Shown: in pieces, positions 11,773 through 35,968 of the stretch
Numbering within the stretch: position 1 is the first letter of the stretch
Layout: each line of letters opens with the position of its first letter
NCBI GenBank assembly: GCA_934132925.1
Contig: CAKPAL010000002.1
Span: forward strand, 1-47,228
Direction of reading: 5' to 3'
Length of the DNA stretch: 47,228 nt
Source of the DNA: an uncultured Bacilli bacterium
GTDB lineage: Bacteria; Bacillota_I; Bacilli_A; RF39; UBA660
Program-made: the position numbers and the translations under genes
The notes under the pieces: model-generated
Database searches by the model: none
The model's input: only the letters and a program-made list of their open reading frames with translations
What the model was told of the DNA's origin: nothing

Positions 11773-12164
11773 TCTTTCTTTAACTAACTTAAGTATATCA
11801 AATTATTTTTATTTAATCAACAAATTTAGACAAATTTCTCCATACTAAAATAATATTAGTATATATCTATTGCTTATATATAATAGATGCAATAGGCATA
11901 TTGTTATTAGACCTAGGCTAATAACAACACTAATAAGACTTACATAGTAAGGCTTATAGTGAACATAATAAAATATATATAATTATTTATTATTAACTAT
12001 TTCTTCTAATATACTTCTTATAATGCTTTCTTCTCTACTACCATTAGTAGTTAATCTAATTAATGGTATATTATATTTAGATATAATATTACTCTTTAAT
12101 ATATCTCTTTCTTTTTGTTTATTATCTTCTTTATGATATTTATATCCATCTACTTCTACTGCTG
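11737..12164. repeat. Junction module copy 1 (about 428 bp, direct repeat of 16664-17092)
   Basis: By-eye alignment gives about 90 percent identity at a constant offset of 4927-4928 bp. Confidence 0.9.
11792..11820 (-). promoter_or_regulatory. Predicted sigma-70-type promoter TTGATT-17-TATACT inside junction module copy 1
   Basis: Hexamers and the 17-nt spacer read directly. Conserved in copies 2 and 3. Confidence 0.5.
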
Positions 12165-12201
12165 TAATGACATTTTTGAAAAAATAAACCTTAAGTTTCA
12201 T
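11983..12201 (-). pseudogene. Truncated DUF2726/DUF559-type (Vsr-like fold) endonuclease-domain remnant
   Basis: ...AVEVDGYKYHKEDNKQKERDIL...IPLIRLTTN. Only the C-terminal half of the domain is present, and the repeat boundary falls inside the domain at VEVDG. Confidence 0.6.
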
Positions 12202-13061: not shown

Positions 13062-14852
13062 CTAAATTTTTGTTTTATTATATGTCACACGAATTTTATT
13101 TTTTTTAATCTCGCAATTATTTATAATACCTTTTAATTGTAAATAGTTCATTAATGTATACATATAGTCAACATTTTCAAATGATAAAGATGTAGTAACA
13201 CCATTTCTTATTTTGCTTATTCTTTCATTTATTTCATATAAATATTTAATATTTATAGGATTAGATTTATGTAAATATATAAAATAATTAATTTTATCTT
13301 TTATTTCTAAGCAGAAAAATAACTGTTCTACTATGGAATCATTTAAGAAAATATTATTTTTTATTATTTCATTTATCAGATATGATAATCCTTTTTTAGA
13401 AATTATTGATATGTCAATAACATCTAACAATTGTATTTTTTTATTAATATCAATATTACTATTTATTATCTCGTCTATAATAAATGTGTCATGTTCAATA
13501 TTATTTTTTAAATTCAAATAATCATCATATTTATTAACCACCAATTTAGACAATAGGATTATATTTTTTTTAAATAAATAATTATATGTATCTATGTTTA
13601 AATCTACTTTATTAAAATTTATTAATTCTTCAACAAATTCTTCATTGATTTCTAATTCGTAATTAAATAAAGAAATAATATAATCAAATTTTTCGGCTAT
13701 AATTTTATAATTTATTAGTGAATTTGAAGTAGAATAAATCATTTTTGATTCAAAATCTTTGAAATTATCATCATTAATTACATTATAGTCGTTTCCAATT
13801 TCTGATAATAAGTATTGTATTACTTCATCTATTTCACCAACTTCATTATAATAACATAAAATATTTTTCATTGATATATTAATATAATTTTCAGTAATAA
13901 TTTCTTTCCATAAACTAGTGTCTTCAATATCATTAATATTAGTAATATTTTCATTTTCTTTCTCTAATATTAAAATTTTCTCCTTTTTATTTAAATTAGA
14001 AGAATTAATAGCTTTTAAAATATTAAGTTCTTTACTATCATATATTTTAAAACTATTATAAAATTTGGCAAACGAATTTGATTCAATAAGTTTATCTTTG
14101 AAATTAGTAAAATTGTCATTTTCAAATAGCATGTCTATTACATCAGCATCTTTATAATAGTTATCAATTTCATACAAATCTATTAATTTATCATAAAACG
14201 ATTTATTTGGAACATAAAATTTGTTATTGTAAAATATATCTATAATTGCCACCACTATTTCATCATAATCTTTAAATGATGGTTTCAAATAATTAATGTT
14301 TAAAATGCTTGTTTCATTAATTTTTAATTTATTTAAAAAATCAACATTTTGTTCTAAAAATTCTTTTAATTTTACATAGCAATTTTCTTTTAAATCAAGT
14401 TTAATATTTTCTAATATTAATTTTAACCATTTTTTATTATTAGTTATGATTTCTAAATTATTAAAGAAATATAAAATTAATTCATTATCAAATATTTTTT
14501 GCAACACTTTTGTGAAATTAATTTCATTATAATTACAATATTCATCTAAAAATTTTAGTTTATAATTATTCATTTGTTTAAATTGAGAGTAAAATTTCTG
14601 CTGCTTGAGAGAAGAAATATTATTTATTAGATAGTCACATATATAAAAATTTAAAACTGTTTCTTTATTAAAATCTTTTGCTTGAATAATGTTAACAATC
14701 TTTTCTACATTTTTTAATTCATAATTATAATTTGCTTTTTCATTAGTATCAACCATTATTAAGAATGAATAATCCATTTGAGTTAAATCCCCTGACTTAA
14801 AATAAGACAAATTATTTTCATAGTTTTCTTTAATAAAGCCATTTTTTACCAA
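13062..14852 (-). CDS. C-terminal continuation of the KAP/YobI-like NTPase frame (annotated ORF has only a TTG start and no RBS)
   Basis: Same reading frame as 14907-16583. The 18 codons between them are open, and only one TAG separates the two ORFs. Confidence 0.6.
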   Translation of the reverse strand: MVKNGFIKENYENNLSYFKSGDLTQMDYSFLIMVDTNEKANYNYELKNVEKIVNIIQAKDFNKETVLNFYICDYLINNISSLKQQKFYSQFKQMNNYKLKFLDEYCNYNEINFTKVLQKIFDNELILYFFNNLEIITNNKKWLKLILENIKLDLKENCYVKLKEFLEQNVDFLNKLKINETSILNINYLKPSFKDYDEIVVAIIDIFYNNKFYVPNKSFYDKLIDLYEIDNYYKDADVIDMLFENDNFTNFKDKLIESNSFAKFYNSFKIYDSKELNILKAINSSNLNKKEKILILEKENENITNINDIEDTSLWKEIITENYINISMKNILCYYNEVGEIDEVIQYLLSEIGNDYNVINDDNFKDFESKMIYSTSNSLINYKIIAEKFDYIISLFNYELEINEEFVEELINFNKVDLNIDTYNYLFKKNIILLSKLVVNKYDDYLNLKNNIEHDTFIIDEIINSNIDINKKIQLLDVIDISIISKKGLSYLINEIIKNNIFLNDSIVEQLFFCLEIKDKINYFIYLHKSNPINIKYLYEINERISKIRNGVTTSLSFENVDYMYTLMNYLQLKGIINNCEIKKNKIRVTYNKTKI

Positions 14853-14906: not shown

Positions 14907-16583
14907 CTATTCGTTTATACTATCAATGTTCAGTATTTCTTCCATAGACATTTCTTTATATTTTTCTATTAATTCTTTATTATAGATAATTTTTTCTTCC
15001 ATTTTTTCAAATTCATAATCTAATTTCTCTACTTTATCTAAAAATTCATTTTTAATTTTTGCTTCAATAGATTTTGTGTTATAACTAGAAAAGTTACAGC
15101 GAATATCTTTATTTCGTAAATCCTCAATATTTATTTCAGAATTAATAAAACCATCAAGAGATAATTCTTGTTCACCAATATAAATTTTTGTTTTATTTAT
15201 GTAATTATTAAAATATTCATTTTTTAAAATGTCTAGTAAAAATGATTTTTTTAAATCTTTTAAATCCTTAATTTTTTGACTTTTTGCATCATTAATTTCT
15301 TTAACAATTTGATTATTATTTTCAATTAATTCATTAATTAGCATTCTTATAAACTCTTTTTTAGAATTAAATATATTATACAAATCACCATCATATTCAA
15401 GTCTTTTATCAAAATCAGAAGGGTTGATATTTTTATAACTAATGATAGCAAACAATTGTGTATAGTCGATATCCTGATTATCTTTTAATACATCAATATA
15501 CATCTTAAATTCCATAAAAATATTATTTAATAATCTTCTATCTTGTATGTGTAGGCTTAATATGCTAAACAAATTCTCATTAATTGTTAACTCATATTTA
15601 TTTTGAATTTTTTTATATAATTCCATTATATATTGTTTTGCATTTTGGCTTGAAAACTTTGAGATGACTGGTATTATATTATCAAAAAATTTCACTCGAT
15701 CCTCCGGATTTAAAAACAAATCATCCCTCAAAGCGTAAATAAAAATTACACCACCATTTTTAGAAATAGTTTCATTAGAATTCAACATGAAATTAAGTTC
15801 TTTCAATTTTTTAAATATTTCTAATGATATTTTCTCATATCTATCTAAGTCTTCTATGATAAGAATTTTAGTTTTTGTTTGTTTAAAAAAATATACAATT
15901 TCATCTAGATATTTATTAAATACCGACTTTTCATCATTATTCGAAAATGAAATTTCTAAGTCTTTATATTTCAGTGCTAAAGTATTTATATATATTTGAA
16001 TTATACTAATTAATTTATATATGCATAGAAATATAACTATAAAATATATATAATATATAATAAAGATAATACTATCAGAAAGGTATTGATGAAAAAAATT
16101 GTACAATGGAGTGAGCATGGCCTCATAAACCTCTGGAAAATAAAAATTTATACATAACATTATGAAACATGAAATTATTGCTAATGAAATTTTTTTTAAT
16201 CCACTAATATATTTAATTCTTTTAAATCTAGACAATGGCAATTTATTTTCATCAATAGTGTAAATTATTTGTTGTAATATTTTTGTTTCTATTTCATTAG
16301 AAACAATATTGGTTTCATCACCTGTTGCTTGTTTATAATTACCTAATGATATTCTTATACTTTTGTAACTATTATCTATTTTTTTTAATATTGAATTTAT
16401 TATACTAGTTTTACCAATTCCATATCTTCCTGTAAAAGCAATTATTTTATTTTTATGTTTAATTGCCTCCATAAAACTATTAAAATATATATTTTTTTCA
16501 TCAACATCATCTCTTGGAGCTAATGAAAAAAATATTTCATCTTTATTTTGCAATTCCTTCCTTTTAAAAACTTTTTTACTCAT
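14907..16583 (-). CDS. KAP-family P-loop NTPase with TM helices inserted in the NTPase domain (YobI/Tmn-like), ends at an in-frame TAG
   Basis: Walker A TGRYGIGKTS. Two to four hydrophobic helices at about aa 125-200. KAP-type Walker B ILIIEDLDRY. Confidence 0.85.
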   Translation of the reverse strand: MSKKVFKRKELQNKDEIFFSLAPRDDVDEKNIYFNSFMEAIKHKNKIIAFTGRYGIGKTSIINSILKKIDNSYKSIRISLGNYKQATGDETNIVSNEIETKILQQIIYTIDENKLPLSRFKRIKYISGLKKISLAIISCFIMLCINFYFPEVYEAMLTPLYNFFHQYLSDSIIFIIYYIYFIVIFLCIYKLISIIQIYINTLALKYKDLEISFSNNDEKSVFNKYLDEIVYFFKQTKTKILIIEDLDRYEKISLEIFKKLKELNFMLNSNETISKNGGVIFIYALRDDLFLNPEDRVKFFDNIIPVISKFSSQNAKQYIMELYKKIQNKYELTINENLFSILSLHIQDRRLLNNIFMEFKMYIDVLKDNQDIDYTQLFAIISYKNINPSDFDKRLEYDGDLYNIFNSKKEFIRMLINELIENNNQIVKEINDAKSQKIKDLKDLKKSFLLDILKNEYFNNYINKTKIYIGEQELSLDGFINSEINIEDLRNKDIRCNFSSYNTKSIEAKIKNEFLDKVEKLDYEFEKMEEKIIYNKELIEKYKEMSMEEILNIDSINE

Positions 16584-16602: not shown

Positions 16603-16644
16603 AAAAAATAAGCAGTATCCATCTAAAAAAGAATAAATACTGCT
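16603..16644 (-). terminator. Second terminator-like hairpin + U-run immediately upstream of the KAP NTPase RBS
   Basis: On the minus strand, AGCAGTAT...ATACTGCT (8 bp) is followed by TATTTTTT, then GAAGTGAGGTG and the ATG. Confidence 0.55.
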
Positions 16645-16663
16645 ATCTTTCATTTATAATTAT

Positions 16664-17092
16664 AGCACAAAAAATCTATTAAATAGACCTGTACTAGCGT
16701 CTTTCTTTAACTAAATTAAGTATATCAAATTATTTTTATTTAATCAACAAATTTAGACAAATTTCTCTATACTAAAATAATATTAGTATATAGTTATTAC
16801 TTATATATAATAGATACAATAGGCATATTGTTATTAGACCTTAGGCTAATATCAACACTAATAAGACTTACATAGTAAGGCTTATAGTGAACATAATAAA
16901 ATATATATAATTATTTATTATTAACTATCCCTTCTAATTTACTTCTTATAATACTCTCTTCTCTACTACTATTAGTAGTTAATCTTATTAATGGTATATT
17001 ATATTTAGATAGTATATTATTCTTTAATATATCCCTTTCTTTTTGTTTATTATCTTCTTTATGATATTTATATCCATCTACTTCTACCGCTA
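16664..17092. repeat. Junction module copy 2
   Basis: Direct repeat of 11737-12164. Confidence 0.9.
16719..16747 (-). promoter_or_regulatory. Predicted promoter TTGATT-17-TATACT (module copy 2)
   Basis: Identical hexamers and spacing to copy 1. Confidence 0.5.
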
Positions 17093-17255
17093 ATAATGGT
17101 TTTTTACTTATATTATTATATATTAAGAAATCTATATGAGTATTATGGTGAGAAGTATATTTTCTTTCTTCTTCTGTTAATAATGTTTTATCTTTTATTA
17201 ATATATCTAAAATTTTATTTATGTTTTCTTTTATATAAATATACTCCTCCTGATA
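16911..17255 (-). pseudogene. DUF2726-like ORF (114 codons) lacking an ATG/GTG/TTG start
   Basis: Own translation gives ...HIDFLIYNNISKKPLLAVEVDGYKYHKEDNKQKERDIL...IPLIRLTTNSS...NNK*. The only candidate start is an ATT behind AGGAGG. It overlaps the end of the upstream gene by 41 nt. Confidence 0.55.
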
Positions 17256-17757: not shown

Positions 17758-17775
17758 TCTATATCACCCTACCAC

Positions 17776-17823
17776 AAAAAAAACACCAGCACAAAAAATC
17801 TATTAAATAGACCTGTACTAGCG
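17776..17823 (-). terminator. Terminator-like leader hairpin + U8 ending just before the RBS of the Cys-rich gene
   Basis: Same hairpin as 11727-11772 (CGCUAGUACA...UGUGCUGGUG), followed by UUUUUUUU and then GGTAGGGTG and the ATG. Confidence 0.65.
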
Positions 17824-17890
17824 TCTTTCTTTAACTAAATTAAGTATATCAAATTATTTTTATTTATTCAATATATTTTGACAATTTTCT
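17784..17890. repeat. Junction module copy 3 (promoter + leader half only)
   Basis: Aligns to 11733-11840 and 16664-16765. Confidence 0.85.
17843..17871 (-). promoter_or_regulatory. Predicted promoter TTGAAT-17-TATACT (module copy 3)
   Basis: Read directly. Confidence 0.5.
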
Positions 17891-18069
17891 TATTCATCAT
17901 CTTCTGAATAATAATCATCATCTTCTAGTTCTTCTTCTTCAAAGTTAAATGAATCATACTTATTTTCTTTTACTAATTCTTTTTTCCAATCTTCTAAATC
18001 ATTATTATCTTTTTTATTATTGTCTTGAGTATCTGCAAATGCTTTTATTAAGTTCCATATCAAACACAT
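17890..18069 (-). CDS. Small, extremely acidic protein (59 aa from the ATG behind GGTGGTGAG)
   Basis: The C-terminal half is almost pure D/E/Y (FEEEELEDDDYYSEDDE). The track start at 18084 is a TTG. Confidence 0.55.
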   Translation of the reverse strand: MCLIWNLIKAFADTQDNNKKDNNDLEDWKKELVKENKYDSFNFEEEELEDDDYYSEDDE

Positions 18070-20700: not shown

Positions 20701-20838
20701 TACTATAATATTATTAGTATATATCTATAACTTATATATAATAAGTATCTTGGATACTTTTAATTAAGATAAGTTTACTTAGCTTAATTAAACACTAATA
20801 AGACTTACATAGTAAGGCTTATAGTGAACATAATAAAG
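20701..20838. repeat. Junction module copy 4 (hairpin half only, central part substituted)
   Basis: Shares AATATTATTAGTATATATCTAT..CTTATATATAATA and ACACTAATAAGACTTACATAGTAAGGCTTATAGTGAACATAATAAA with copies 1 and 2. Confidence 0.8.
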
Positions 20839-20883
20839 ATAATTTATAGGTATATTAAAACTAAGACTTGATATCTTAGTTTA

Positions 20884-21222
20884 TTATTTAGTTAATGTTA
20901 ATGTTCTTATTTTAAATTCTTTAGTATCATAACCCCATAGATTAGATACGAATCTTGTATTATTTATTATTATATTTTCTTCTTTATGATCATGACCATA
21001 TATCCATACTGGTGATTTATATTCTTTTACTTCTGTATAGTAACAAGAGTTATTACCCCTACTATTACTTTTATTTCTAAATGGTGGTACATGAGTTATT
21101 ATTAAATCTATATTATTTGGTAAGTTATTATACCAGGATATGCTATCGTTATGTAGTTTTTGTATTTTTTCTTTTTTGGTACTTATATTATATTGAAATG
21201 TGTAAATTGTGTCAAATAAAAA
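20884..21222 (-). pseudogene. Metallophosphoesterase C-terminal remnant (no start codon)
   Basis: Own translation gives ...NNIDLIITHVPPFRNK...SPVWIYGHDHKEEN...TLTK*, with the GNH(D/E)-less tail motifs ITHxPP and GHxH. The open frame is only 112 codons and contains no Met. Confidence 0.6.
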
Positions 21223-21300
21223 CTATTGACACTTTTATAAATGTCTACCCTAAAGGGTGCATTTCATTTATCTGTCAACAGTTTTTGTGGATAAATAGTT

Positions 21301-25329: not shown

Positions 25330-25496
25330 TTGTTTTAGCACTGCAAGCCATTTGTCTTGCTAGTGTTATTTGGAGTCTTTGGTCTCCAAATAAGTATTAA
25401 TTATACTTATTATATATAAGTATGGAATATATACTTAAAGTAGTTTATTATTGGTATTTTTTTTGTTATTTTGAGTATAATAATAGTGCAATATAC

Positions 25497-25525
25497 TTGA
25501 CTTTTTATGATAGTTATAGTATCAT
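25497..25525 (+). promoter_or_regulatory. Predicted promoter TTGACT-17-TATCAT for a plus-strand small RNA
   Basis: Read directly. There is no plus-strand CDS downstream. Confidence 0.45.
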
Positions 25526-25531
25526 TGTATT

Positions 25532-25645
25532 ACCGGAGAGAAATCTCGTCAGGTCGATAGCTCAATGTCGATTTTATTAAATTAAGTGTATGTTAAGTAC
25601 ACCGCTTGAGTTGGGGAGAGACTATTTTATAGTCTCTTTTCTTTT
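25532..25645 (+). ncRNA. Candidate orphan small RNA (about 110 nt) ending in a strong intrinsic terminator
   Basis: The most GC-rich non-coding patch in the window. Elements: GAGA-GAAA-UCUC (GNRA) hairpin, CTCAA/TTGAG long-range pair, GTGTA/TACAC hairpin, and terminator AGAGACTA-ttta-TAGTCTCT followed by TTTCTTTT, which has a U-run only on the plus strand. Confidence 0.45.
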
Positions 25646-25671
25646 AAATTATCAACAGATTCTGTTGATAA

Positions 25672-26649
25672 CTACTTTAAATCTATATCAAAAGAATAGT
25701 CATAGCTTATTTTTTCACATTTATTAGTATTTTTGAATGCTTCTTCTTTATGAGAATAATCCACAATTTCTTTAACAGTATAATTTTTAAAATATTTTTT
25801 TATTTTATTTAATACATCTAATTCTTCTTTGGTAAATAAATCTTTATTAAATTCTTTCTTTGGTGTTATTTCATAATATTCTTTAGATGTGGTTATTATT
25901 GGTTCGTAGTCTATTATATCTTCTTGATATCCTTTTGATAATATTGTTTCAAAGCGATCCGGAACTGGGCCAAATGGTAATTTACAATATTCTAGTCCTG
26001 TTATTGACTTACAATTTTCTTTATAAAATAAGAAGTCAGCATAAAACATTTCTTTTAATAGTTTGGTTTTTAATATTGTATTATCCGCGAGATAAATAAT
26101 CATATTATATACCTTTTCTTTATTTAATTTAGTATAACCGTTATACTCTGTTGGATTATATTCTTCGCTTAGCAATAATTGCTTTTCGTTATTAGCTAAG
26201 AATATAGATATCTTATCATTAATCTTATTATATTCTTTATCAGTAAATTGTACTTTATTGGCTTCAACTAAGTTTGTTATTATTTCTGGACTAGCTATTA
26301 AACTTTTTATTAGTATTAGATAACTATCATTTGGTATAGATACTCCTTTTTCATAACTTATTAATGTCTTTTTAGCACAACCGATTACTTTAGAAAATAA
26401 TTCTTGGGATAGGTTATATTTTTTTCTTAAGGCTATTATTTCTTCTTTTGTTACTCCATACAATTTATTATATATTTCTATACCTTTTTCAGAAGCAATA
26501 TTATCTAATTTCTCGTCATATACTAAATTATTACATTTTGAGCAAAATCTTCTATCTGAATTAAATTTTATCTCTTTTCCTTTTATTTGGTAGATATGTT
26601 CATGATTCTTAACATAAGTATCAGTACTACCACAATTATCACATCTCAT
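25672..26649 (-). CDS. MqsA-like antitoxin (Zn-ribbon + XRE HTH) fused to a C-terminal Panacea/DUF4065 (SocA-like) domain
   Basis: CDNCGS...CSKCNN zinc ribbon. HTH LSQELFSKVIGCAKKTLISYEKG. C-terminus MFYADFLFYKENCKSITGLEYCKLPFGPVP, typical of DUF4065. Confidence 0.75.
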   Translation of the reverse strand: MRCDNCGSTDTYVKNHEHIYQIKGKEIKFNSDRRFCSKCNNLVYDEKLDNIASEKGIEIYNKLYGVTKEEIIALRKKYNLSQELFSKVIGCAKKTLISYEKGVSIPNDSYLILIKSLIASPEIITNLVEANKVQFTDKEYNKINDKISIFLANNEKQLLLSEEYNPTEYNGYTKLNKEKVYNMIIYLADNTILKTKLLKEMFYADFLFYKENCKSITGLEYCKLPFGPVPDRFETILSKGYQEDIIDYEPIITTSKEYYEITPKKEFNKDLFTKEELDVLNKIKKYFKNYTVKEIVDYSHKEEAFKNTNKCEKISYDYSFDIDLK

Positions 26650-26659
26650 AATTTTCCTC

Positions 26660-26986
26660 CTAATTATAATCTATATGAAATGATAGACATACTGTCATTT
26701 CTTTATTATTATATTCTTCTATCTTTAATTTAATATATACTCTATTTCCATTAATATCTTTTTTAAATACCAGTGAATTTTCACTTTTTGAATAAAAAGG
26801 TTTATAATCTTGAACATAGTTATATGAAGATAATGTTAATATTTCTTGCCATGCTAAACTTTCAGTTATCCCAATTTCTAATAACTCTTCAAGATAATCT
26901 CTATCTTTTCTATTAGCAAATCTTTTATTTCCTTTAGTTATTAACTTTTTCATTTTTGTTAGTAGTTTGAGCTGCTCTCCAGTCAT
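26660..26986 (-). CDS. MqsR-family toxin-like protein (108 aa)
   Basis: Resembles MqsR in size and pattern (...VKKLI..G...F...A..ELLEIGI...A...I..L....Y...........VF.....G..VYIKL.I......V.SFH). Start moved to the ATG at 26986 behind GAGGGGG. Confidence 0.65.
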   Translation of the reverse strand: MTGEQLKLLTKMKKLITKGNKRFANRKDRDYLEELLEIGITESLAWQEILTLSSYNYVQDYKPFYSKSENSLVFKKDINGNRVYIKLKIEEYNNKEMTVCLSFHIDYN

Positions 26987-27047
26987 ATAATTCCCCCTCA
27001 CGCTTATCTTTCTATTACATAATATATCTTTTCCTTTCTGTATTAAT

Positions 27048-27063
27048 GGTAACATATGTAACC
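27048..27063. promoter_or_regulatory. Imperfect 16-bp palindrome GGTaACATATGTaACC, candidate operator of the TA operon
   Basis: Lies between a TTGACA (27070-27075, minus strand) and the toxin start. Confidence 0.45.
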
Positions 27064-27120: not shown

Positions 27121-27247
27121 ATAATAAAAACTATAGACATAAATCTATAGCTTATATAAATAATTTTTTTCAGAGACGTTTGGCTCTGAAATATTTTGAA
27201 ACACCTTAGGCTTTCAAAAACTCGAACAATGTAATGTGAGAGGAATA
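27121..27247 (+). repeat. Composite hairpin element A1 (3 hairpins + tail CAATGTAATGTGAGAGGAA)
   Basis: Aligns to 32501-32600 along its length and to 35893-35968 in architecture and tail. Confidence 0.85.
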
Positions 27248-27252
27248 TACTA

Positions 27253-27675
27253 TTATCTACTTTTACCTTTAGGTGATAATAGTTCTTCTCTTAAATATCT
27301 ATAATATTCAATGCAATTGACATATCTATTTTCTTGGTTATTAAATATCCAAATGGCAGTTAAATCTTCTAGTGGAATGGCTCCCATTTGACCATCTTGT
27401 ACTTTTGGATATGGTGCTTCTAGTACTGGCATTTTATTATAGTAAAATAATTTATCACCACCTCTAGTCCAAAATAATTCATTATTATGACCACCTTTTA
27501 CTTTTGCTTTACTTCTTACATATCCAGTAGTTATAATATCTTTTACTTGATCCATACCAGTTACTCTATATACAAAATTATCATTTGTTTTCATAGCAAT
27601 AGGATTATCTTTACCAAATGCTAGTTCTCGCTTAAAAACTCTATTTCTAGTACTTTCTATTCTATCGTCTTCCAT
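27253..27675 (-). CDS. Hypothetical protein (140 aa)
   Basis: ORF with RBS AAAGGAG, last gene of the ATPase operon. No motif recognised. Confidence 0.7.
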   Translation of the reverse strand: MEDDRIESTRNRVFKRELAFGKDNPIAMKTNDNFVYRVTGMDQVKDIITTGYVRSKAKVKGGHNNELFWTRGGDKLFYYNKMPVLEAPYPKVQDGQMGAIPLEDLTAIWIFNNQENRYVNCIEYYRYLREELLSPKGKSR

Positions 27676-27677
27676 AT

Positions 27678-28052
27678 TTACTCCTTTTCTATGGTAGTTC
27701 TACCACTTATTCTATTATCACTATCTTTAATCCAAAGATAATATTTTTTATATGTAAAGTAAGAACTTTCTGCTTTATTATTTTCTATTTTATTCCAGCA
27801 TAATGAATCTACACTGGGAACACTCTTGGTTGTTTTTAGGCAGTATTCAGTAGGGTTTCCTGTTGTTGTTATTATTAATTTACCATTTTCTTTAGTGACA
27901 TCTTCTATTTTAGCAGTCATATTTTCATTAGGTTTAGCGTAATACTGATTATTATCACTATCTGGTAAGATATTTTTAGCAACAATGAAACTAAATACTG
28001 ATAAGACGAGAATACCTCCAAGTGCTATGAATGTGCTATTATTATTTTTCAT
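27678..28052 (-). CDS. Small membrane-anchored/secreted hypothetical protein
   Basis: N-terminal TM/signal FIALGGILVLSVFSFIV. Start overlaps the ATPase stop. Confidence 0.7.
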   Translation of the reverse strand: MKNNNSTFIALGGILVLSVFSFIVAKNILPDSDNNQYYAKPNENMTAKIEDVTKENGKLIITTTGNPTEYCLKTTKSVPSVDSLCWNKIENNKAESSYFTYKKYYLWIKDSDNRISGRTTIEKE

Positions 28053-30657
28053 TTTTAACCTCCCTGTAATCTTTAAATAATTTTGTATATATTGGTTTTA
28101 CTAGTTCTCCTAATACAAACATTATAAGACATATTCCAATAGTTATCAAGATATAACTTATTTTTATATTTGGTACTATGAAGTATTTACTTATTGGAGT
28201 TACTAATACTATGATTTGAACTAATAGTATTAATGATACTCCTAGTGTTAATTTTTTATTTGAAAAGATATCTTTATTTAGTACTGATTTTTTTATGTTA
28301 CGACAAGAGAATGAGAATAATAATTCATGAGTTACTAAGTAGATAAATAATAATGAACCTGCGGTATTTACATCTACTGTTTTAGCAAAGTAAATGAATA
28401 TTATCAACATTACTACTGATTTTATGATAGCTCCAATTACTATTTTGGCTGTTAATAATGGGGTAAAGAAACTTTCGTTGTATTTATTAGCAAGAGTATT
28501 TTCCATTTGGTCATCTTGTTTCTTTTCAAAGGCTAACATAATAGCAGGTATACTATCTGTTACTAGGTTTATCCATAGTAATTGCAAAGTTGTAAACATT
28601 TCCATATTTAGTACCATGGATATGAATACTAGAAGTACTTCAACTATATTGCCTGCTAGTAAGTATAGAATTATTTTCTTGATATTAGCAGTTATTCTTC
28701 TTCCTTCTTCAACGCCATCGACAATGGTTGAAAAACTATCATCTACAAGGATACAATCTGCAACTTTTTTTACTACTTCAGTTCCGGTTATACCCATACC
28801 TATTCCGATATCAGCTTTTTGAATAGCAGGAGCATCATTTACACCATCACCAGTCATGGCTACGACATAACCATTGCTTTGAAGAGCATCCACTATTCTT
28901 AATTTGGTACTTGGTGATATTCTAGCATAAACATTATATTTTTTTACGGCTTCTTTTAATTCATCATCAGTCATTTTGTCTACTATTTTACCAGTAGTGG
29001 CTCCCTCATCAGTATCGATAATGCCAACACTTTTAGCGATAGCACGAGCAGTATTTATACTATCTCCGGTTATCATAACTATTTTTATTCCAGAATTTTT
29101 ACATGTATTAATAGCAGTTGGTACGGAACTTCTTGGTGGATCCATCATACCTATTAATCCGATAAATATCATATCTTTTTCTGGATTAGTTGTATTTTCA
29201 TTTTTATAGGCTAAGGCTAGGATACGAAGAGACTTTTCTGATTCTTCCTCTTCTATTTTGAATATTTTTTCTTTATATTCTGTAGTTATATTATATAGTT
29301 TGTTATCTTCTAGATAATAAGTACAATTATGTAAGACAGAGTCTAGACTTCCTTTAGTAAAAGAATATTCTTTATTATCTATTATATTTATAGTACTCAT
29401 CATTTTTCTATCGAAATCAAATGGATACTCTTTTACTCTAGGGATATTTGTTAGAGTATTTTTTTCTTCTAGATATTTATAGATTGCTACTTCGGTTTCA
29501 TCTCCTAAATATTTATCGTTATTCTTAGTTACATTTTGACAACTTGATAAACAATAGTTATATAGATTTATGTTAGCAATGCTGTCTTTTTCGGTATATA
29601 ATTTATTGTTTACATAGATACTTTTTACTTGCATTTTATTTTCGGTAATGGTTCCTGTTTTATCAGAACAGATTATGTCAGTAGAACCTAATGTTTCAAC
29701 AGAAGCCATTTTTCTTATAATTACATTTCTTTTAGCCATCTCAGACATTCCTAGGGATAATATTATGGTTATTACTGAGGACATACCTTCAGGAATAGCG
29801 GCGACCGCTAGGGAGATTGATAGCATTAGGATATCAAAGAAATCATTCTTTTTAAGGAGACCTACAGCCATCATAACTATTATTATACCGATTATGATAT
29901 AGGTTAATACTTTACTTATTTGGTTTACTTTCTTTTGAAGGGGAGTTAGTTCATTCTTATTATTCATAAGACTAGCTCCTATTTTACCTAATTCGGTATT
30001 CATAGCGGTATTACACACTACGACAAAGGAATGACCATTTGTTACATTACATCCAGCATAGACCATATTTTTTCTTTCATATAATTCTTTTTCTTCAGTT
30101 ATATCTATATTGTCTTTCTTAATACTTTTTGATTCTCCAGTTAGGGTTGATTCATTTACTTCAAGAACTTCTGATGATATTATTCTAGCATCAGCGGATA
30201 CATAGTCACCGGCTTCTAGTTCTATTATATCTCCTGGTACGATCTTTCTTACATCAATTGTTTCTTTCTTACCATCTCTTATAACATTATTGTTAGTTAT
30301 AAACATTTTATTTAGTTCTTCGATAGCTTTATCGGCTTTCTTCTCTTCAATAAAACTTAGGGTAGCATTTATTATGACAATTATTAGAATTATTACTGAG
30401 TCAGCATATGATTCTTTTTGAATATAAGATATTACCGCAGAAAATACTGAAGCAAAGATAAGTAATATTATCATGAGGTCATTAAACTGACTTAAAAAGA
30501 TTATGATATTTGGTTTCTTTTTGCGTTCTGCTAATTTGTTTTCACCATATTTTTCTAATCTCTTACTTGCTTCTTCTTCAGTTAAGCCATTTATACTTGT
30601 ATTTAATTCTTTATATAATTCTTCTACTTTTTTATTATAATAATTATTTTCTTTCAT
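28042..30657 (-). CDS. P-type (P2, Ca2+/cation-translocating) ATPase
   Basis: ICSDKTGTITENKM, MITGD, TGDGVNDAPA, about 10 TM segments, N-terminal cation-ATPase-N motif. Confidence 0.92.
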   Translation of the reverse strand: MKENNYYNKKVEELYKELNTSINGLTEEEASKRLEKYGENKLAERKKKPNIIIFLSQFNDLMIILLIFASVFSAVISYIQKESYADSVIILIIVIINATLSFIEEKKADKAIEELNKMFITNNNVIRDGKKETIDVRKIVPGDIIELEAGDYVSADARIISSEVLEVNESTLTGESKSIKKDNIDITEEKELYERKNMVYAGCNVTNGHSFVVVCNTAMNTELGKIGASLMNNKNELTPLQKKVNQISKVLTYIIIGIIIVMMAVGLLKKNDFFDILMLSISLAVAAIPEGMSSVITIILSLGMSEMAKRNVIIRKMASVETLGSTDIICSDKTGTITENKMQVKSIYVNNKLYTEKDSIANINLYNYCLSSCQNVTKNNDKYLGDETEVAIYKYLEEKNTLTNIPRVKEYPFDFDRKMMSTINIIDNKEYSFTKGSLDSVLHNCTYYLEDNKLYNITTEYKEKIFKIEEEESEKSLRILALAYKNENTTNPEKDMIFIGLIGMMDPPRSSVPTAINTCKNSGIKIVMITGDSINTARAIAKSVGIIDTDEGATTGKIVDKMTDDELKEAVKKYNVYARISPSTKLRIVDALQSNGYVVAMTGDGVNDAPAIQKADIGIGMGITGTEVVKKVADCILVDDSFSTIVDGVEEGRRITANIKKIILYLLAGNIVEVLLVFISMVLNMEMFTTLQLLWINLVTDSIPAIMLAFEKKQDDQMENTLANKYNESFFTPLLTAKIVIGAIIKSVVMLIIFIYFAKTVDVNTAGSLLFIYLVTHELLFSFSCRNIKKSVLNKDIFSNKKLTLGVSLILLVQIIVLVTPISKYFIVPNIKISYILITIGICLIMFVLGELVKPIYTKLFKDYREVKNEK

Positions 30658-30669
30658 CTTTTTACTCCT

Positions 30670-30846
30670 TTATATTAGATATGATAGAATAAACATTACT
30701 ATCATGATTATTAATATTATTATTAAGAGTACTTTGGTTATGTTTATCAGGATGTTTTGATATGGCTTTAGTACTCTTAGGCCACAGTTACGACAATATT
30801 TGTCACTATCTCTTACGACTTTTTTACAATTTAGACATTCTTTCAT
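30670..30846 (-). CDS. 58-aa zinc-ribbon + single-TM protein (not in the ORF track)
   Basis: Own translation gives MKECLNCKKVVRDSDKYCRNCGLRVLKPYQNILINITKVLLIIILIIMIVMFILSYLI*. It has a TAATG overlap with the upstream gene and ends 12 nt before the ATPase start. Confidence 0.6.
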   Translation of the reverse strand: MKECLNCKKVVRDSDKYCRNCGLRVLKPYQNILINITKVLLIIILIIMIVMFILSYLI

Positions 30847-31964
30847 TATTGTAACCTCTCTTTTAGGATATTTATTATTTCTAATGAACTAGCACTAGAG
30901 GAATCTCTATGTAAGTAATAGTCATGAATGGCTTCGGCGATTACTTCATCATAATTTACACTTTCTTTTACTTTTTGACTAGCATAGCCTGATATGTTTT
31001 TGGTAAAGTCCTCGAGTGAGATATTGATATTATACTTCTTGTTATAATTAGTTATTGCTTCTTCGACTAGTTCTTTAGAGTACACTCCTTCTTTTAAGAT
31101 ATTTAGGATATTTTGATAATTATTTATATTATCTTTTGTTACTAGTGTTATGTTATCAATATTATTTTGTTTTAATAATGTTACGAAGGCTATGTAATGA
31201 CCTAGTTCGTGAGCTATTAGTGATTCATAACTAGCATCATTGGGATACCAGTTTTCTTTTAATCCTTTGTTTAGAATATCTTTATTTAAGAAATAATAAC
31301 TATTTAGTAGGATTTCTGTTTTGTTTACTTTGTTATATTCATTTATATTTAGGTTATTATTTACAAAGTTATTCGTGGGATTGAAATAGGCTATATAGTC
31401 TTCATTTCTTGGAGCATTGGTTACTGTTATGTTGGTTAGATAACCTTTTATATTAGGAAACAACTGATATGTTGCACTTATTACTTCTTTTATTTTACTT
31501 GATATATCTTCATCAATATCACATAAACTTACACTGGGAATATCATAGTTTTCACTTATTTCTTTTTCGATTAGAGACACATTTATATTTCTTTTACATT
31601 TCCAAGATTGTTTTGTGATATCTTGTTTTATTAGATTTATGGCTTCTTCTTTGGTACTTAAGGTTACATTTGTATATTTATTATTAGTATTCATAATGGA
31701 TACTTTATAACCATATTTTAAACTTGATATTTCTTTTTGTAATTCTATATATGGTCTAAACATGTCCTTACCACTTATTAGAGTCATGATAATAAAACTT
31801 ATTATGATAATGGAAGTTATGGTAAATAGCGAACCAATATTATTTTCTTTATATCTTAGTTTGTTATCCTTTAGAGATAAATAGCCATGTGGTGTTAGTT
31901 CTCCGCAGGAAGGACAAAAGTTATCATCTACTTCTAGTTCTTCATTACACTTTATACATTTCAT
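30846..31964 (-). CDS. Zinc-ribbon, single-TM, extracytoplasmic HExxH metallopeptidase-like protein
   Basis: MKCIKCNEE...CPSCG, TM IIIISFIIMTLI, IAHELGHYIAF. Confidence 0.75.
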   Translation of the reverse strand: MKCIKCNEELEVDDNFCPSCGELTPHGYLSLKDNKLRYKENNIGSLFTITSIIIISFIIMTLISGKDMFRPYIELQKEISSLKYGYKVSIMNTNNKYTNVTLSTKEEAINLIKQDITKQSWKCKRNINVSLIEKEISENYDIPSVSLCDIDEDISSKIKEVISATYQLFPNIKGYLTNITVTNAPRNEDYIAYFNPTNNFVNNNLNINEYNKVNKTEILLNSYYFLNKDILNKGLKENWYPNDASYESLIAHELGHYIAFVTLLKQNNIDNITLVTKDNINNYQNILNILKEGVYSKELVEEAITNYNKKYNINISLEDFTKNISGYASQKVKESVNYDEVIAEAIHDYYLHRDSSSASSLEIINILKERLQ

Positions 31965-32070
31965 AACTCCTCCTTTGCTACTTTATTTAATTATACCATA
32001 TTTTGTCGTATTTGTTTGTAAAAATTTAATAATTTTATTTTTAATGGGAAAATTGTATTAGGTGTTAGAT

Positions 32071-32517
32071 ATGAATTTTCAAAAACTAATAGAATTAAGA
32101 GAAGACTTTAATCTTAAACAAAAGGATATTGCTAAGCTATTAAACATTACTCAGCAGACTTATTCACTATGGGAAAATGGTACAAAGATTATTCCTTTAA
32201 AGCATTTGAATTCTTTGTGTAATTATTATAATGTTAGTATGGATTATGTACTTGGACTTTCTAATGTTAAACATTATGATGTTATTAATAGTGTTATTGA
32301 TAAGAATTTAATTGGTAAGCGATTAAAGAGTTTTAGAAATGAATATAATATTACCCAGGAAGAACTTGCTAATATTCTTAATACTACTCATTCTACTATT
32401 AGCGCTTATGAAAATGGAAAGACTACTATTCTTACCGCATTTGCTTATGAGATATGTAAGAAATATCATATTTCGATGGATTATTTATGTGGAAGAATTA
32501 ATAATAAAAAACTATAG
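32071..32517 (+). CDS. XRE-family transcriptional regulator with two HTH_3 domains
   Basis: LKQKDIAKLLNITQQTYSLWENG and ITQEELANILNTTHSTISAYENG. ATG at 32071 behind GGTG; the track start is GTG at 32062. Confidence 0.85.
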   Translation: MNFQKLIELREDFNLKQKDIAKLLNITQQTYSLWENGTKIIPLKHLNSLCNYYNVSMDYVLGLSNVKHYDVINSVIDKNLIGKRLKSFRNEYNITQEELANILNTTHSTISAYENGKTTILTAFAYEICKKYHISMDYLCGRINNKKL

Positions 32518-32628
32518 ACATAAATCTATAGCTTATATAAATACTTTTATTTCAGAGACATTTGGCTCTGAAATTTTTTTGAAAGACCTTAGGCTTTCAA
32601 AAGCCATGAGTGACCTTAGGCACGATGG
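32501..32628 (+). repeat. Composite hairpin element A2 (4 hairpins); overlaps the last codons of the XRE gene
   Basis: Hairpins at 32512-32531, 32553-32570, 32579-32600 and 32604-32628. Confidence 0.85.
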
Positions 32629-32631
32629 ATA

Positions 32632-32769
32632 CTACTTCTTTTTTAAGGTCTTTTCTTTTGGTTTATTTTGATTTTGTTCATTATTTTGTTGTTCATTTCG
32701 AGGTACCTGTTCCGGTAGCTGGCCTGTTACAAATAGATACTCTAAATAATCTTCAAAATTAAAGTTCAT
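32632..32769 (-). CDS. Possible 45-aa ORF MNFNFEDYLEYLFVTGQLPEQVPRNEQQNNEQNQNKPKEKTLKKK
   Basis: GGAGATAAAG RBS. Divergent from the HerA-like gene. It may be non-coding. Confidence 0.3.
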   Translation of the reverse strand: MNFNFEDYLEYLFVTGQLPEQVPRNEQQNNEQNQNKPKEKTLKKK

Positions 32770-32878
32770 CTTTATCTCCTTTTCTTTATATTATATTAAC
32801 ATAAGTGTGAATTTTTTGCAATTTTATTATATACTTTTTTATATTTATATGATAAAATTATAATAGGTGAAAAAGAAT

Positions 32879-34639
32879 ATGTTGGGGAAGATTGTTGCTA
32901 TTAATGATAATATTGTTTCTGTACAATTACAGGTTAATGTTTATGATTATGATGGTTTAATTAGTAAAAATGTTATTTTTAAAGATAATGATACTACTAA
33001 TATAGGTGAAGTTATTGCTATTGGTAATGGTATTATGCAAGTATCTTTAGTTGGTGAAATTAAGAATGGTAGATTTTTATATGGTGATATCTCAAAGCCT
33101 TCTTTTAGAGCAGAATGTCACATGATAGATAATGCTACTTTAGATATTATTTTAAATAATGATGCCTCTAATAACATTAAACTTGGTAAATCTTTTATTT
33201 ATCCTAACTATGATATTAAACTTGATGTTGGTAATTTCTTTTCTAATCATTTTGCTATTCTAGGTAATTCTGGTAGTGGTAAATCTTATTCTGTTGCTAA
33301 AATACTACAGGGTATCTTCTACCAATGTAAGAGTTTACCTTTCTATTCTAATATCTTTTTGTTTGATGCTTATGGTGAGTATCAAAGGGCTTTTTCGAGA
33401 ATTCATGAGGTTAATGAAAATATTAATTACAAAGTTTATACTACTGATCTTAATAGTAGTGAATTTGAAATTCTTCAAATGCCTTTTTGGCTTCTTGGAC
33501 TTGATGATTTATGTTTACTTATGAACGTTACTTCTAAAGAACAAATTCCTTTTATTGAAAAGGCTCTTAAGTTAGTTAGTTATTTTTCTAGAAATGAAGA
33601 CGAAGTTATTAATCAGAAAAATGATATTATTGCAAGGTGTTTGCTTGATGTTTTGTTTTCTGGTAAGTCTCCTAGTATGATTAGAAACAAGTTTATTTCG
33701 ATTCTAACTAAATTTAGTACAAGAAATCTTAATTTAGATGTTAGTCTAGTAAAAGGCGGTTGGACAAGAACTATTAGGCAGTGTTTATTTGTAGAGGCTG
33801 GCGGTGAATTCTCTGATGTTGAGGTTGTTATTGAATATCTAGAAAGTTTATGTCTTGATAACTTTGAGCTTTCTATGCCAAATGGGGAATATATGTATAC
33901 AATGAAAGACTTTAGTACTGCTCTTGACTTTGCTCTTATTTCCGAGGGGGCTCTTAATAGTGATTCGGCCTTTGAACTTTCTAATGTTCTTAAGGTTAGA
34001 TTTAATAGTTTGATGAATAGTAATTATGCTAGATATTTTGAATATAATGGTTATATTAATAGAGAAAGTTATATTAATTATTTGCTTACTGCTCCTAGTG
34101 GTAGAAAGGCTCAAATAGTTAACTTTAATATTAATTATGTTGATGATAGATTTGCTAAAACTTTAGTTAAAATTTATTCTAAACTTCTTTTTGATTATCT
34201 TGTTTCATTAAATCAAAGGGGCTCTATTCCTTTTCACATCGTTTTAGAAGAGGCCCATAGGTATGTTCAAAATGATGATGATGCTGCTACTCTTGGATAT
34301 AATATTTTTGAAAGGATTACTAAAGAGGGTAGAAAGTATGGTTTGTTTTTGGGTATTGTATCACAGAGACCATCAGAACTTTCGGAAACTACAATATCGC
34401 AATGTAGTAACTTTCTTCTATTTAAGATGTTCCATCCTAGAGATTTACAATTTGTTAGGGATATTATTTCTAGTGCAGATATTACACTGACAAATAAGAT
34501 TAAGACTTTGCATCCTGGTAGTTGTATTATGTTTGGTACAGCATTTAAGATGCCTACAATTGCTATTTTGGATAAGCCTAATCCTGAACCTCTTAGTCAG
34601 ACTTGTGATATTAATCAAACTTGGTATATTCATAATTAG
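32879..34639 (+). CDS. HerA/DUF87-type (FtsK-HerA superfamily) ATPase with N-terminal HAS-barrel-like region
   Basis: Walker A GNSGSGKSYS, Walker B HIVLEEAHRYV, SQRPSELSETTISQCSNFLLFKM. ATG at 32879 behind AGGTGA; the track start is GTG at 32867. Confidence 0.85.
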   Translation: MLGKIVAINDNIVSVQLQVNVYDYDGLISKNVIFKDNDTTNIGEVIAIGNGIMQVSLVGEIKNGRFLYGDISKPSFRAECHMIDNATLDIILNNDASNNIKLGKSFIYPNYDIKLDVGNFFSNHFAILGNSGSGKSYSVAKILQGIFYQCKSLPFYSNIFLFDAYGEYQRAFSRIHEVNENINYKVYTTDLNSSEFEILQMPFWLLGLDDLCLLMNVTSKEQIPFIEKALKLVSYFSRNEDEVINQKNDIIARCLLDVLFSGKSPSMIRNKFISILTKFSTRNLNLDVSLVKGGWTRTIRQCLFVEAGGEFSDVEVVIEYLESLCLDNFELSMPNGEYMYTMKDFSTALDFALISEGALNSDSAFELSNVLKVRFNSLMNSNYARYFEYNGYINRESYINYLLTAPSGRKAQIVNFNINYVDDRFAKTLVKIYSKLLFDYLVSLNQRGSIPFHIVLEEAHRYVQNDDDAATLGYNIFERITKEGRKYGLFLGIVSQRPSELSETTISQCSNFLLFKMFHPRDLQFVRDIISSADITLTNKIKTLHPGSCIMFGTAFKMPTIAILDKPNPEPLSQTCDINQTWYIHN

Positions 34640-34650
34640 TTATATTAAAA

Positions 34651-34685
34651 AGATAATTCTATGTTTATTAGAACTATCTTTTTTC
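34651..34685 (+). terminator. Rho-independent terminator of the HerA-like gene
   Basis: AGATAATTCTA-7 nt-TAGAACTATCT (one mismatch) followed by TTTTTT. Confidence 0.7.
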
Positions 34686-34696
34686 TTTGGTTCCTT

Positions 34697-34717
34697 TAGC
34701 CTTACTATGTAAGTCTA
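34697..34717 (-). repeat. Inverted-orientation copy of the B-type hairpin (TAGACTTACATAGTAAGGCTA on the minus strand)
   Basis: Core identical to 11936-11954. The outer stem differs. Confidence 0.8.
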
Positions 34718-34751
34718 TTAGGGTAAATTAAAGTCTATGGTCTCTAATTTA

Positions 34752-35810
34752 TTAATTTGCTTTTCTTTTTACTTTTATTTTAGATTTCATATTACTAAAT
34801 ATATTACTTATTTCTTCATAGGCTTCTTTATTTTCTTGATAGAAATCCTCTAGTAAATATTGATTTTCTGTATACTTTTGATTTGTATTGTGGATATATT
34901 TTTGACTTTCACTAAACGGTATAGTTGGATATTGATATTGTGGTAGTATTTTTTTGTTTGCGGATGTCTGCACTATTTTGGTATCTCTTAATCCATTTGA
35001 ATCTACTAGTGAATTTTCTTCATATTTACTTGGTAGATATAATCTTTCGTTGGTTGGGTCTATATAGTAGGTATTTCCTTTATAATTGGCTATTGTTATT
35101 TTATGATTACTTGCATTTCTTTTTATCTTATTAAATATATAGTATTTATTTATTTCTTCTTCGTGTTCATATAATTCATCTACTAAACTCAAATTCTGGT
35201 CAATTGCTTTTCTTATTATATCTTTTAGAAATTCCGTTGTTTTATCTATATCTGCCATTTCATAACTTCTAATATTTACTGATATGGCTTCACTTTGTAT
35301 TCCGTAAGCATTATATATATCTTTTAACATTACCGCTATATGTCTACATACTGCTTGTCCACATATTATGTTAGATGGCCATATTCCTTTTATATCTTTT
35401 ACTTTGTCTGCTCCAAATTCGAACTTTTTATCTTTAGATAGATATCCTTCATATAAAGCTTTATTATATAAGGTATATATTTCTACGGGATTTTCTAACT
35501 CTAGTGTTTTATTTAATTTTATATACTCTTTTAATACTTCGTTATATATTGTTTGTATTTCTTTTACATCCTTCGTATATTGTTCTGGTTTAGCAAATAT
35601 ATTAAAACCATTGAAGGCAATATTTAACCATATAGTTGCAGAAATTATGGAACTTAGCTGCATTTGTGCACAACTATCTAAAGGTAATACTATCCCTAAT
35701 ATATTAAAAAATGGCATTATTATTGGTGTTATTCCCGCTATTAATTCTATTTTTCTATTTGTATTATAATCTATCTTATTATATACTTCTTCAATTGCTT
35801 TCTTACTCAT
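34752..35810 (-). CDS. Membrane-associated transglutaminase-like cysteine protease family protein
   Basis: Cys-His-Asp pattern GQAVCRHIA...NHKITIA...YYIDPTN. N-terminal TM helices. ATG at 35810 behind GAGGGGG; the track start is 35876. Confidence 0.75.
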   Translation of the reverse strand: MSKKAIEEVYNKIDYNTNRKIELIAGITPIIMPFFNILGIVLPLDSCAQMQLSSIISATIWLNIAFNGFNIFAKPEQYTKDVKEIQTIYNEVLKEYIKLNKTLELENPVEIYTLYNKALYEGYLSKDKKFEFGADKVKDIKGIWPSNIICGQAVCRHIAVMLKDIYNAYGIQSEAISVNIRSYEMADIDKTTEFLKDIIRKAIDQNLSLVDELYEHEEEINKYYIFNKIKRNASNHKITIANYKGNTYYIDPTNERLYLPSKYEENSLVDSNGLRDTKIVQTSANKKILPQYQYPTIPFSESQKYIHNTNQKYTENQYLLEDFYQENKEAYEEISNIFSNMKSKIKVKRKAN

Positions 35811-35892
35811 TGTTTTTCCCCCTCTTTGTTTGAATGCCATTATTTTATCACTTTGTTTCTTTATTGTCAATACCACCTACTACTTTAGAGAC

Positions 35893-35968
35893 TTTGGGCT
35901 CTAAAGTTTATAGAAAGACTACAGGCTTTCTATAACGGCAAGCAATGAAATGTGAGACGAACAAAAAA
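35893..35968 (+). repeat. Composite hairpin element A3 (2 hairpins + tail CAATGAAATGTGAGACGAA)
   Basis: Hairpins at 35893-35914 and 35918-35943. Stems differ from A1 and A2 by compensatory changes. Confidence 0.8.

Follow-up and report, generated by a model that had tools for sequence, protein, structure and literature searches.

Head-to-tail hairpins with a conserved A·G mismatch form a dispersed intergenic repeat family in uncultured low-GC gut Bacilli

The closest described counterparts of the element reported here are the REP (repetitive extragenic palindromic) sequences of E. coli, Pseudomonas and Stenotrophomonas, together with BIMEs, REPINs and RAYT proteins. REP families comprise subfamilies distinguished by complementary stem changes, contain unpaired GA residues and head-tail dimers, and share as their hallmark the tetranucleotide GTAG (or CGTC), which is conserved at a foot of the palindrome (PMC3733652). 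E. coli REPs carry a conserved stem mismatch that is needed for TnpA-REP activity, and the transposases of IS608 and ISDra2 touch unpaired or mismatched bases of the stems (PMC8266576). Here we describe a family of hairpins with a conserved A·G mismatch in a 47,228-nt stretch of an uncultured Bacilli bacterium (contig CAKPAL010000002.1 of assembly GCA_934132925.1, positions 1 to 47,228), referred to below as the window. The hairpins form modules, and the modules are a family of small, non-coding, intergenic repeats dispersed through a clade of uncultured low-GC gut Bacilli.

Hairpin anatomy and compensatory change

Each hairpin is built of an AT-rich and highly variable arm (57 distinct arm pairs) topped by a conserved motif. 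The arm is exactly 9 bp long in 56 of the 80 unique hairpins and 8 bp long in 15 more. Its innermost pair, next to GAC, is A-T in 61/61 copies; above it follow a G-C pair, the A·G mismatch and a C-G pair. The hairpin is closed either by a 3–4-nt loop without fixed sequence or by an extra small stem-loop (top of 5–13 nt). In apex variants GAT..AGC, TAC..GGA and AAC..GAT the flanking pairs are altered and the purine·purine mismatch is kept, and a few copies have A·A in place of A·G.

For covariation analysis we used 28 AGAC-N4-GGCT sites from 408 kb of related DNA, picked by that sequence alone and not by pairing. At these sites 89.9% of the cells were paired, compared to 63.7% in shuffles, and double-sided changes were found in 88 cells compared to 29.7. 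The resulting covariation score was 0.651 against 0.167 in shuffles, none of the 500 shuffles reached the real score, and controls slid along the sequence scored 0.11–0.18. The original prediction, made from the letters of the window, of a real hairpin family with a conserved G-C/A·G/C-G motif and covarying stems was thus borne out. When 40 unique GAC-N4-GGC sites from the same 408 kb were considered, 21 had at least 8 of 9 flanking Watson-Crick pairs, and the distribution was bimodal. Compensatory change could also be followed in place: at an orthologous site upstream of frr, one and the same arm pair is A-T in three related loci (L045, L080, L044), A·G in L079 and C-G in L107. Covariation, in-place compensatory change and the apex variants speak for selection on both the pairing and the mismatch.

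In the window, a covariance model of the family returned 10 hits at E<0.001, and 7 weaker or variant copies could be added, which brings the total to 17 hairpins; these make up 8 modules, lie between 11.9 and 35.9 kb and are without exception intergenic. The strand carrying GAC always scored far above the opposite strand. GACN4GGC was observed 8 times compared to 1.33 expected, a count reached by none of 100 dinucleotide shuffles. The enrichment did not extend to GACN3GGC, which by itself was not enriched in the window (3 compared to 1.46 expected). The 17-nt extended core GACTTACATAGTAAGGC was found 4 times compared to 0.08 expected, and every real window copy of the motif possessed complementary flanking arms. 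Among the hairpins listed previously, the one at 27196–27217 is a degenerate copy (CAC..GGC); a copy with a GAT..AGC apex at 20759–20792 was absent from that list.

Modules and their dispersal between genes

The hairpins never stand singly and always form a head-to-tail doublet or triplet on one strand. The first hairpin, H1, usually has TT..AA at its foot and directly abuts the second, H2, whose foot is usually CAC..GTG and whose stem contains a bulged A or G·A/A·A mismatches in its middle. In the commonest subfamily, Y, the doublet lies 3′ of a conserved box, (T)TAGTATATAGTTATGGCTTATATATAAT, which we read as TTAGTA-N17-TATAAT, and a 4–7-bp hairpin, H0, is placed between the box and H1. H0 itself covaries among copies (ATAT/ATAT, ATGC/GCAT, GTATC/GATAC), and both RNA and DNA folding predict exactly H0, H1 and H2. 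A second subfamily with a related box is represented in the window by A1 and A2, which are 93% identical copies of one composite element, A2 having three hairpins. Two other window modules, A3 and the copy at 34.7 kb, are box-less. Subfamily X is not present in the window; its doublet consists of a CACAATAGA hairpin followed by a CCTMTTAA hairpin.

A search with the H2 core GACTTACATAGTAAGGC identified 56 genome loci, 8 of which are chance matches in unrelated genomes of higher GC content. The remaining 48 are spread over 18 species-representative assemblies, with at most 7 loci per assembly, including uncultured Bacilli or Tenericutes, Clostridium sp. CAG:302, Firmicutes bacterium CAG:321 and Bacilli bacterium nC33_bin.244; we take these carriers to be RF39-like small-genome Bacilli. 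They are gut bacteria, uncultured and almost unstudied, for which an easily scanned repeat family provides a marker for strain typing and genome dynamics. H1 was found directly upstream of the H2 core in 50/50 genuine matches. The X subfamily accounts for 79 more gut-metagenome loci in about 5–6 contexts, always as a doublet. When the 9-bp hairpins in the 408 kb of related loci are ranked by apex, GAC/GGC comes second (57 unique hairpins) despite a GC content of 26%, and the good copies are all intergenic.

With respect to flanking genes, the hairpins are found in both orientations (52 versus 39), as are boxed modules (22 versus 22). One end of the module lies 0–50 nt from a stop codon, and flanking gene pairs are convergent more often than divergent (10 versus 3). 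In L009, a module has a terminator on one side and the promoter of the next gene on the other. This arrangement led us to reject the box as a promoter of the downstream gene, which in L009 has its own TTGTAT-N18-TATAAT promoter 3′ of the module. In related genomes, modules neighbour xerD, frr, mnmA and the DUF362 gene of a DUF362-FBPase pair. Since the same modules stand beside housekeeping genes, the family is genome-wide and intergenic rather than specific to the accessory gene island that occupies 11–36 kb of the window. Inverted pairs of whole modules are present in L007, L032 and L054, and a viral contig (L062) carries the same module.

Comparison of related loci revealed one exact presence/absence event of a doublet. 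In L019, TTTTTTATTA is directly followed by AAAAAATTATG; exactly at this junction L007 and L011 have a 54–59-nt X doublet, which is also found in this sequence context at about 20 metagenome loci. There is no target duplication, no microhomology and no shared base at the junctions. Other indels found in 0.9 Mb of related DNA were unconnected to the hairpins. The flank 5′ of X doublets reads YTTT in each of the 5–6 contexts, apart from one CTT; this could be a target word, though it carries little weight at 26% GC. In L037 (7289–7316), H1 is inverted in place (GCC..GTC for GAC..GGC) with the box, H0, H2 and flanks unflipped, which amounts to a flip of the palindrome centre. In L027, copies at separate places share arms and differ in tops and flanks. 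A different kind of insertion was seen in L032, where 148 nt (1695–1842) are added relative to L055, the two sequences being otherwise 94–98% identical; the inserted segment is non-coding, has a higher GC content than the DNA around it, and may represent a small RNA or some other small element.

The modules of the window are of both boxed and box-less kinds. The first, W1, begins with a promoter-like box TTAGTA-N17-TATAAT at 11856..11884 (+); the same box stands 5′ of most Y-type modules in related loci. It is followed by H0 (ATGC-aatag-GCAT, 11887..11899 (+), predicted in both RNA and DNA folds), H1 (ttgttatta-GAC-cta-GGC-taataacaa, 11901..11927 (+), 26.8 bits in the covariance model, E 3e-5) and H2 (CACT-A-ATAA-GAC-TTACataGTAA-GGC-TTAT-AGTG with its bulged A, 11928..11961 (+)). 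A 7-bp inverted repeat, ATACTAA-N7-TTAGTAT, at 11847–11867 and at homologous places, overlaps the −35-like part of the box; it is found in Y modules of the DUF2726 and metallophosphatase groups and could be an operator or a further hairpin. Module W2 (16783..16889 (+), 31.8 bits) is a paralogue of W1 with box, H0, H1 (16828–16855) and H2 (16856–16889). The copies at 11.9 and 16.8 kb are not independent because both are within one 450-nt segmental duplication. Module W3 (20714..20826 (+)) has a box, H0 at about 20745–20757, H1 with the compensated apex GAT..AGC at 20759–20792 and H2 at 20793–20826 (17.2 and 13.7 bits). On the opposite strand, W4 (25338..25437 (−)) has a box with TATAAT at 25414–25409, H0, an H1 with an A·A mismatch (25366–25393) and an H2, CACTAGCAA-GAC-aaat-GGC-TTGCAGTG, at 25338–25365 (25.7 and 22.8 bits).

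The element A1 corresponds to W5 (27131..27219 (+)) and comprises a hairpin at 27131–27150, a box-like GCTTATATAAATA at 27150–27162, H1 at 27166–27193 and the degenerate H2 (CAC..GGC) at 27194–27219 (32.1 and 17.1 bits). Its counterpart A2, or W6 (32512..32628 (+)), has the hairpin at 32512–32531, the box-like sequence at 32531–32543, H1 at 32548–32575, H2 at 32576–32603 and H3 at 32604–32628 (34.1 and 35.5 bits). The box-less W7 (34693..34751 (−), 24.9 bits) lies between convergent genes and consists of H1 at 34724–34751 (GAC..GAC, A·A) and H2 at 34693–34723 (CCCTAATA-GAC-TTACataGTAA-GGC-TAAAGG). The last module, W8 or A3 (35882..35962 (+)), is also box-less and ends with a conserved tail CGGCAAGCAATGAAATGTGAGACGAAC at 35936–35962; its hairpins are H1 at 35882–35907 and H2 at 35908–35935 (26.6 and 35.6 bits), correcting the positions given previously (35893–35914 and 35918–35943), which were about 10 nt off.

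Comparison with described repeats and rival readings

The family resembles REPs in that it consists of short extragenic palindromes that are numerous, often stand in groups and are found close to the 3′-ends of genes in both orientations; the suggestion of REP-like location and behaviour is supported. As in REPs, subfamilies are set apart by complementary stem changes, and the stem has a conserved mismatch or bulge, a feature on which recognition depends in REPs and which determines their active strand (PMC3733652, PMC8266576). The conserved motif, unlike that of REPs, adjoins the apex, and the host is a low-GC clade of Bacilli, outside the REP accounts of PMC3733652 and PMC8266576. Our literature search found no paper joining RF39 with REP, or Firmicutes with REPIN and RAYT. 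There is also a likeness to the ends of IS200/IS605 elements and to PATE-type MITEs (miniature inverted-repeat transposable elements): the entire element consists of a pair of imperfect hairpins on one strand, and there are no terminal inverted repeats, the doublet beginning with CACAATAG and ending with TTAATAGG. The one exact insertion or deletion without target duplication and the possible YTTT target word would fit such MITEs too. A difference from IS608 and ISDra2 is that here the element ends are the hairpin feet, leaving no space for guide and cleavage tetranucleotides; an autonomous copy was not seen, H1 and H2 never being parted by a gene, be it tnpA, tnpB or another, in the approximately 0.9 Mb sampled.

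Modular intergenic repeats are also known as pneumococcal BOX, RUP and Correia elements, which are foldable, about 60–130 nt long, vary in module number and may hold promoter-like sequences. The modules described here are of a similar kind. However, RUP and Correia elements end in terminal inverted repeats and duplicate their target, BOX modules keep a conserved sequence, and none of the three has a stem of fixed length and variable sequence with a conserved A·G mismatch.

At about even confidence, we read the hairpins as a selfish or structural repeat of the REP or IS200/IS605-MITE kind, recognized as a folded single strand by some protein. The element would act either as single-stranded DNA at replication forks or as a transcript, and the protein would read the hairpin shape together with the strand-specific purine·purine mismatch, by analogy with RAYT on REPs, IS200/IS605 TnpA on end hairpins and IntI on attC. 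Such single-strand recognition is an inference, as are the type of enzyme involved and any advantage for the host. Copying or excision would take the doublet as one exact unit, with no target duplicated, and copies would persist where they are least harmful, just 3′ of stop codons and beside terminators, in either orientation. Selection would hold the pairing because, we propose, unpaired copies would lose recognition or function. The arrangement of a 9-bp arm, A-T, G-C, A·G and C-G provides a defined bait for seeking the reader protein. If this protein proved to be a new enzyme acting on single-stranded DNA, the family would extend the repertoire of hairpin-guided DNA transactions, and the assembly of defence islands around repeated junction units would become easier to explain.

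Several observations weigh against this reading. Neither GTAG nor CGTC tags the foot of the hairpins, which is TT..AA, CAC..GTG or CCT..AGG; where GTAG does occur, it forms the loop of an H0 hairpin, 7 nt away from H1, and in other copies this loop has a different sequence. The doublets lack the inverted, alternating orientation of REPINs and BIMEs, and in this respect the BIME-like reading suggested earlier is not supported: hairpins within a module run head-to-tail on one strand. Compared to typical REPIN populations, the arms are far more diverse and more perfectly paired. Neither the window nor 1.06 Mb of related DNA, a small and biased genome sample, yielded a Y1_Tnp (PF01797-like) homologue. 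This search used tblastn with three query sequences, followed by a profile from the two that matched PF01797 in Pfam; the third, an E. coli RAYT query without a Pfam match, was disregarded. L019 is the sole clean empty site, the search for others having covered 0.9 Mb. L056 and L030, which are without H1 and H2 of the module at window 11901–11961, have CATA microhomology at the junction, which may point to deletion. The count of G·T versus A·C (9 versus 5) separates neither RNA from DNA nor the two strands. Finally, the perfect and highly conserved TATAAT, which keeps a constant spacing to H0 in about 58 unique modules, and the bulged A and tandem G·A/A·G or A·A mismatches of H2, purine-rich internal loops that are typical RNA motifs, speak for an RNA. 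Because the tag, inverted doublets and space for guide tetranucleotides are all lacking and no Y1 enzyme was found in the sampled DNA, the hairpins belong to neither the REP nor the IS200/IS605 family as defined. They are a previously undescribed REP-like family with unusual recognition geometry in a little-studied lineage.

A more specific proposal, which we consider doubtful, is that a hairpin-reading enzyme not yet described (a single-stranded DNA transposase or nuclease, or an RNA-binding protein) takes the doublets as its substrate, in a lineage without a known REP system. Such an enzyme would measure a 12-bp helix, read the A·G two pairs below the top, and move head-to-tail pairs precisely from foot to foot without target duplication. 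If so, the doublets would be a new class of miniature mobile element, apart from REPINs and IS200/IS605 MITEs, and their boxed form may also be a mobile unit of promoter and structured RNA. Should they be only a structural 3′-end element, they would still be a natural case of compensatory evolution preserving a mismatch.

The features of an RNA just mentioned lead to the main alternative, which we regard as somewhat unlikely: the modules would be a multi-copy structured RNA family in which a boxed module is a transcription unit, with the promoter TTAGTA-N17-TATAAT and an RNA of about 100 nt (H0, H1, H2), the G-C/A·G/C-G motif is the site of an RNA-binding protein, and box-less modules are structures in the 3′ untranslated region of the upstream gene. 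The RNA might be a sponge, a stabilizer of 5′- or 3′-ends, or a put-type antitermination element. Strong covariation is consistent with this, H0, H1 and H2 are all predicted to fold, and folding as RNA scores z = −4.4 for the GAC strand compared to −2.7 for the opposite strand; moreover, a small RNA with its own promoter, DUF3800-I, is encoded in the same island on the strand opposite to the genes. On the other hand, orientation is random (22 versus 22), so half of the RNAs would run antisense into gene 3′-ends; most copies have no terminator directly after H2; the match to a −35 element is poor (3/6); and H0 lies only 2–3 nt 3′ of TATAAT, so that a normal start site would cut its 5′ arm. The box is absent from X-type and A3-type doublets, the loops are not conserved, and a doublet has been inserted or deleted exactly at the DNA level. 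Nor do the modules match Rfam. Rfam 15 was run at gathering thresholds on the window, at permissive E-values on 11–36.5 kb, and on two short module regions; only DUF3800-I (25525–25649) passed the gathering threshold in the window, and the modules gave nothing above 20 bits, with gathering scores of at least 40. The repeat and the RNA readings are compatible with each other, as the example of E. coli REPs shows.

The hairpins had also been proposed to mark the boundaries of accessory modules and to be recombination hotspots, and the placement of modules in the window invites comparison with integrons. Repeated junction units, each made of a leader and a module, bound cassettes within the island: a 4.8-kb cassette, 99.25% identical in L056, starts just after one module and stops just before the next, and the content between the modules at 25.4 and 27.2 kb (W4 and W5) differs between genomes, being an MqsRA-like pair in the window and a DUF3800 gene in L052 and L054. 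Integron-like recombination sites, folded as single strands like attC and serving a tyrosine recombinase in the insertion or exchange of defence cassettes, would account for this placement and for island genes that nearly all point in the same direction. Like attC, each hairpin would fold from a single strand, and it has variable sequence, a conserved, strand-specific unpaired feature and a variable terminal structure. Nevertheless, we consider this reading very improbable. The arms have no R″/R′ core sites (RYYYAAC...GTTRRRY); no tyrosine recombinase, intI or otherwise, is encoded in the window, and the recombinase beside modules in L038 and L055, considered as a cognate enzyme, turned out to be ordinary, housekeeping XerD. 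Doublets are found rather than one hairpin per cassette, and the same modules flank core genes (xerD, frr, mnmA, DUF362), for which reason the boundary proposal is too narrow as a description of the family. In the one swap that could be mapped, the breakpoints fall outside the hairpins, at distances of about 250 nt (25645) and 67 nt (27099). The W1/W2 junctions are 450-nt duplicates, which also hold the conserved leader and the tail of a DUF2726-helicase gene, and ordinary homologous recombination is enough for them. In the defence island the repeated junction units would supply homology for cassette exchange, which can be explained by ordinary homologous recombination. Least probable, to the point of being hardly tenable, is that the hairpins are ordinary or lineage-specific intrinsic terminators. 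Their positions 0–50 nt 3′ of stop codons and between convergent genes would suit this function, but no U-tract follows the stems, the arms being T-rich 5′ and A-rich 3′ on either strand, and a terminator scan finds none at the module. Canonical terminators with A-tract, hairpin and T-tract are often present beside modules as separate structures, and both a conserved internal mismatch and a fixed 9-bp arm are foreign to terminators.

The island and neighbouring features of the window

The window has a GC content of 26%, and its part from 25990 onward matches a 48-kb contig of a Hadza gut metagenome with 100% identity. Nearly all genes are on the minus strand, and a scan for tRNA and tmRNA in the window found none. 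The region from 11 to 36 kb is an island of defence-type and accessory genes whose products include AAA_15/AAA_21 ATPases, a YobI-like NTPase, an ABC-F protein, an MqsA/SocA and MqsR-like pair, a P-type ATPase and a HerA-like ATPase. Adjoining it, at about 3–10 kb, are further defence-type genes, including those for a fused Dam methylase, an HNH protein and a helicase. The island is flanked on one side by a two-component system and an ABC transporter, and on the other by uvrA and core genes, including those for Mini-III, SpoU methylase, sigma factors and RsgA. Small proteins of 180, 140 and 124 aa encoded near modules were considered as HUH enzymes and ruled out as secreted or of no assigned family.

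The DUF3800-I RNA (RF02969, 67 bits) at 25525–25649 (+) has promoter-like and terminator-like sequences of its own on the strand opposite to the genes, and adjoins the MqsA/SocA and MqsR-like pair (25672–27055). In L052 and L054, which have the DUF3800 gene in place of this pair, homology ends exactly at the 3′-end of the RNA (25645). The leader found at the junction units is about 130 nt long and conserved at 11711–11840, 16638–16767 and 17762–17965, upstream of three genes (two for ATPases and one for a 180-aa secreted protein), and at more than 10 related loci. Just 5′ of the ribosome-binding site it has a terminator-like hairpin with a T-run; it resembles an attenuator or riboswitch-like leader and has no Rfam match.

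Some genes are present in the window as remnants or in split form. The DUF2726-domain helicase gene is represented by two copies of its C-terminal tail, at 11977–12190 and about 16905–17100 (−), with other genes upstream of these remnants; it is intact in L039 (886 aa). The YobI-like NTPase gene is split into two open reading frames, 13062–14852 and 14907–16583 (−), and is a single frame of 1173 aa in L056, where the DNA is 99.25% identical. A remnant of a metallophosphatase gene at about 20870–21300 (−) has a 515-nt deletion compared to L005, and the gene is intact in L026 (267 aa).

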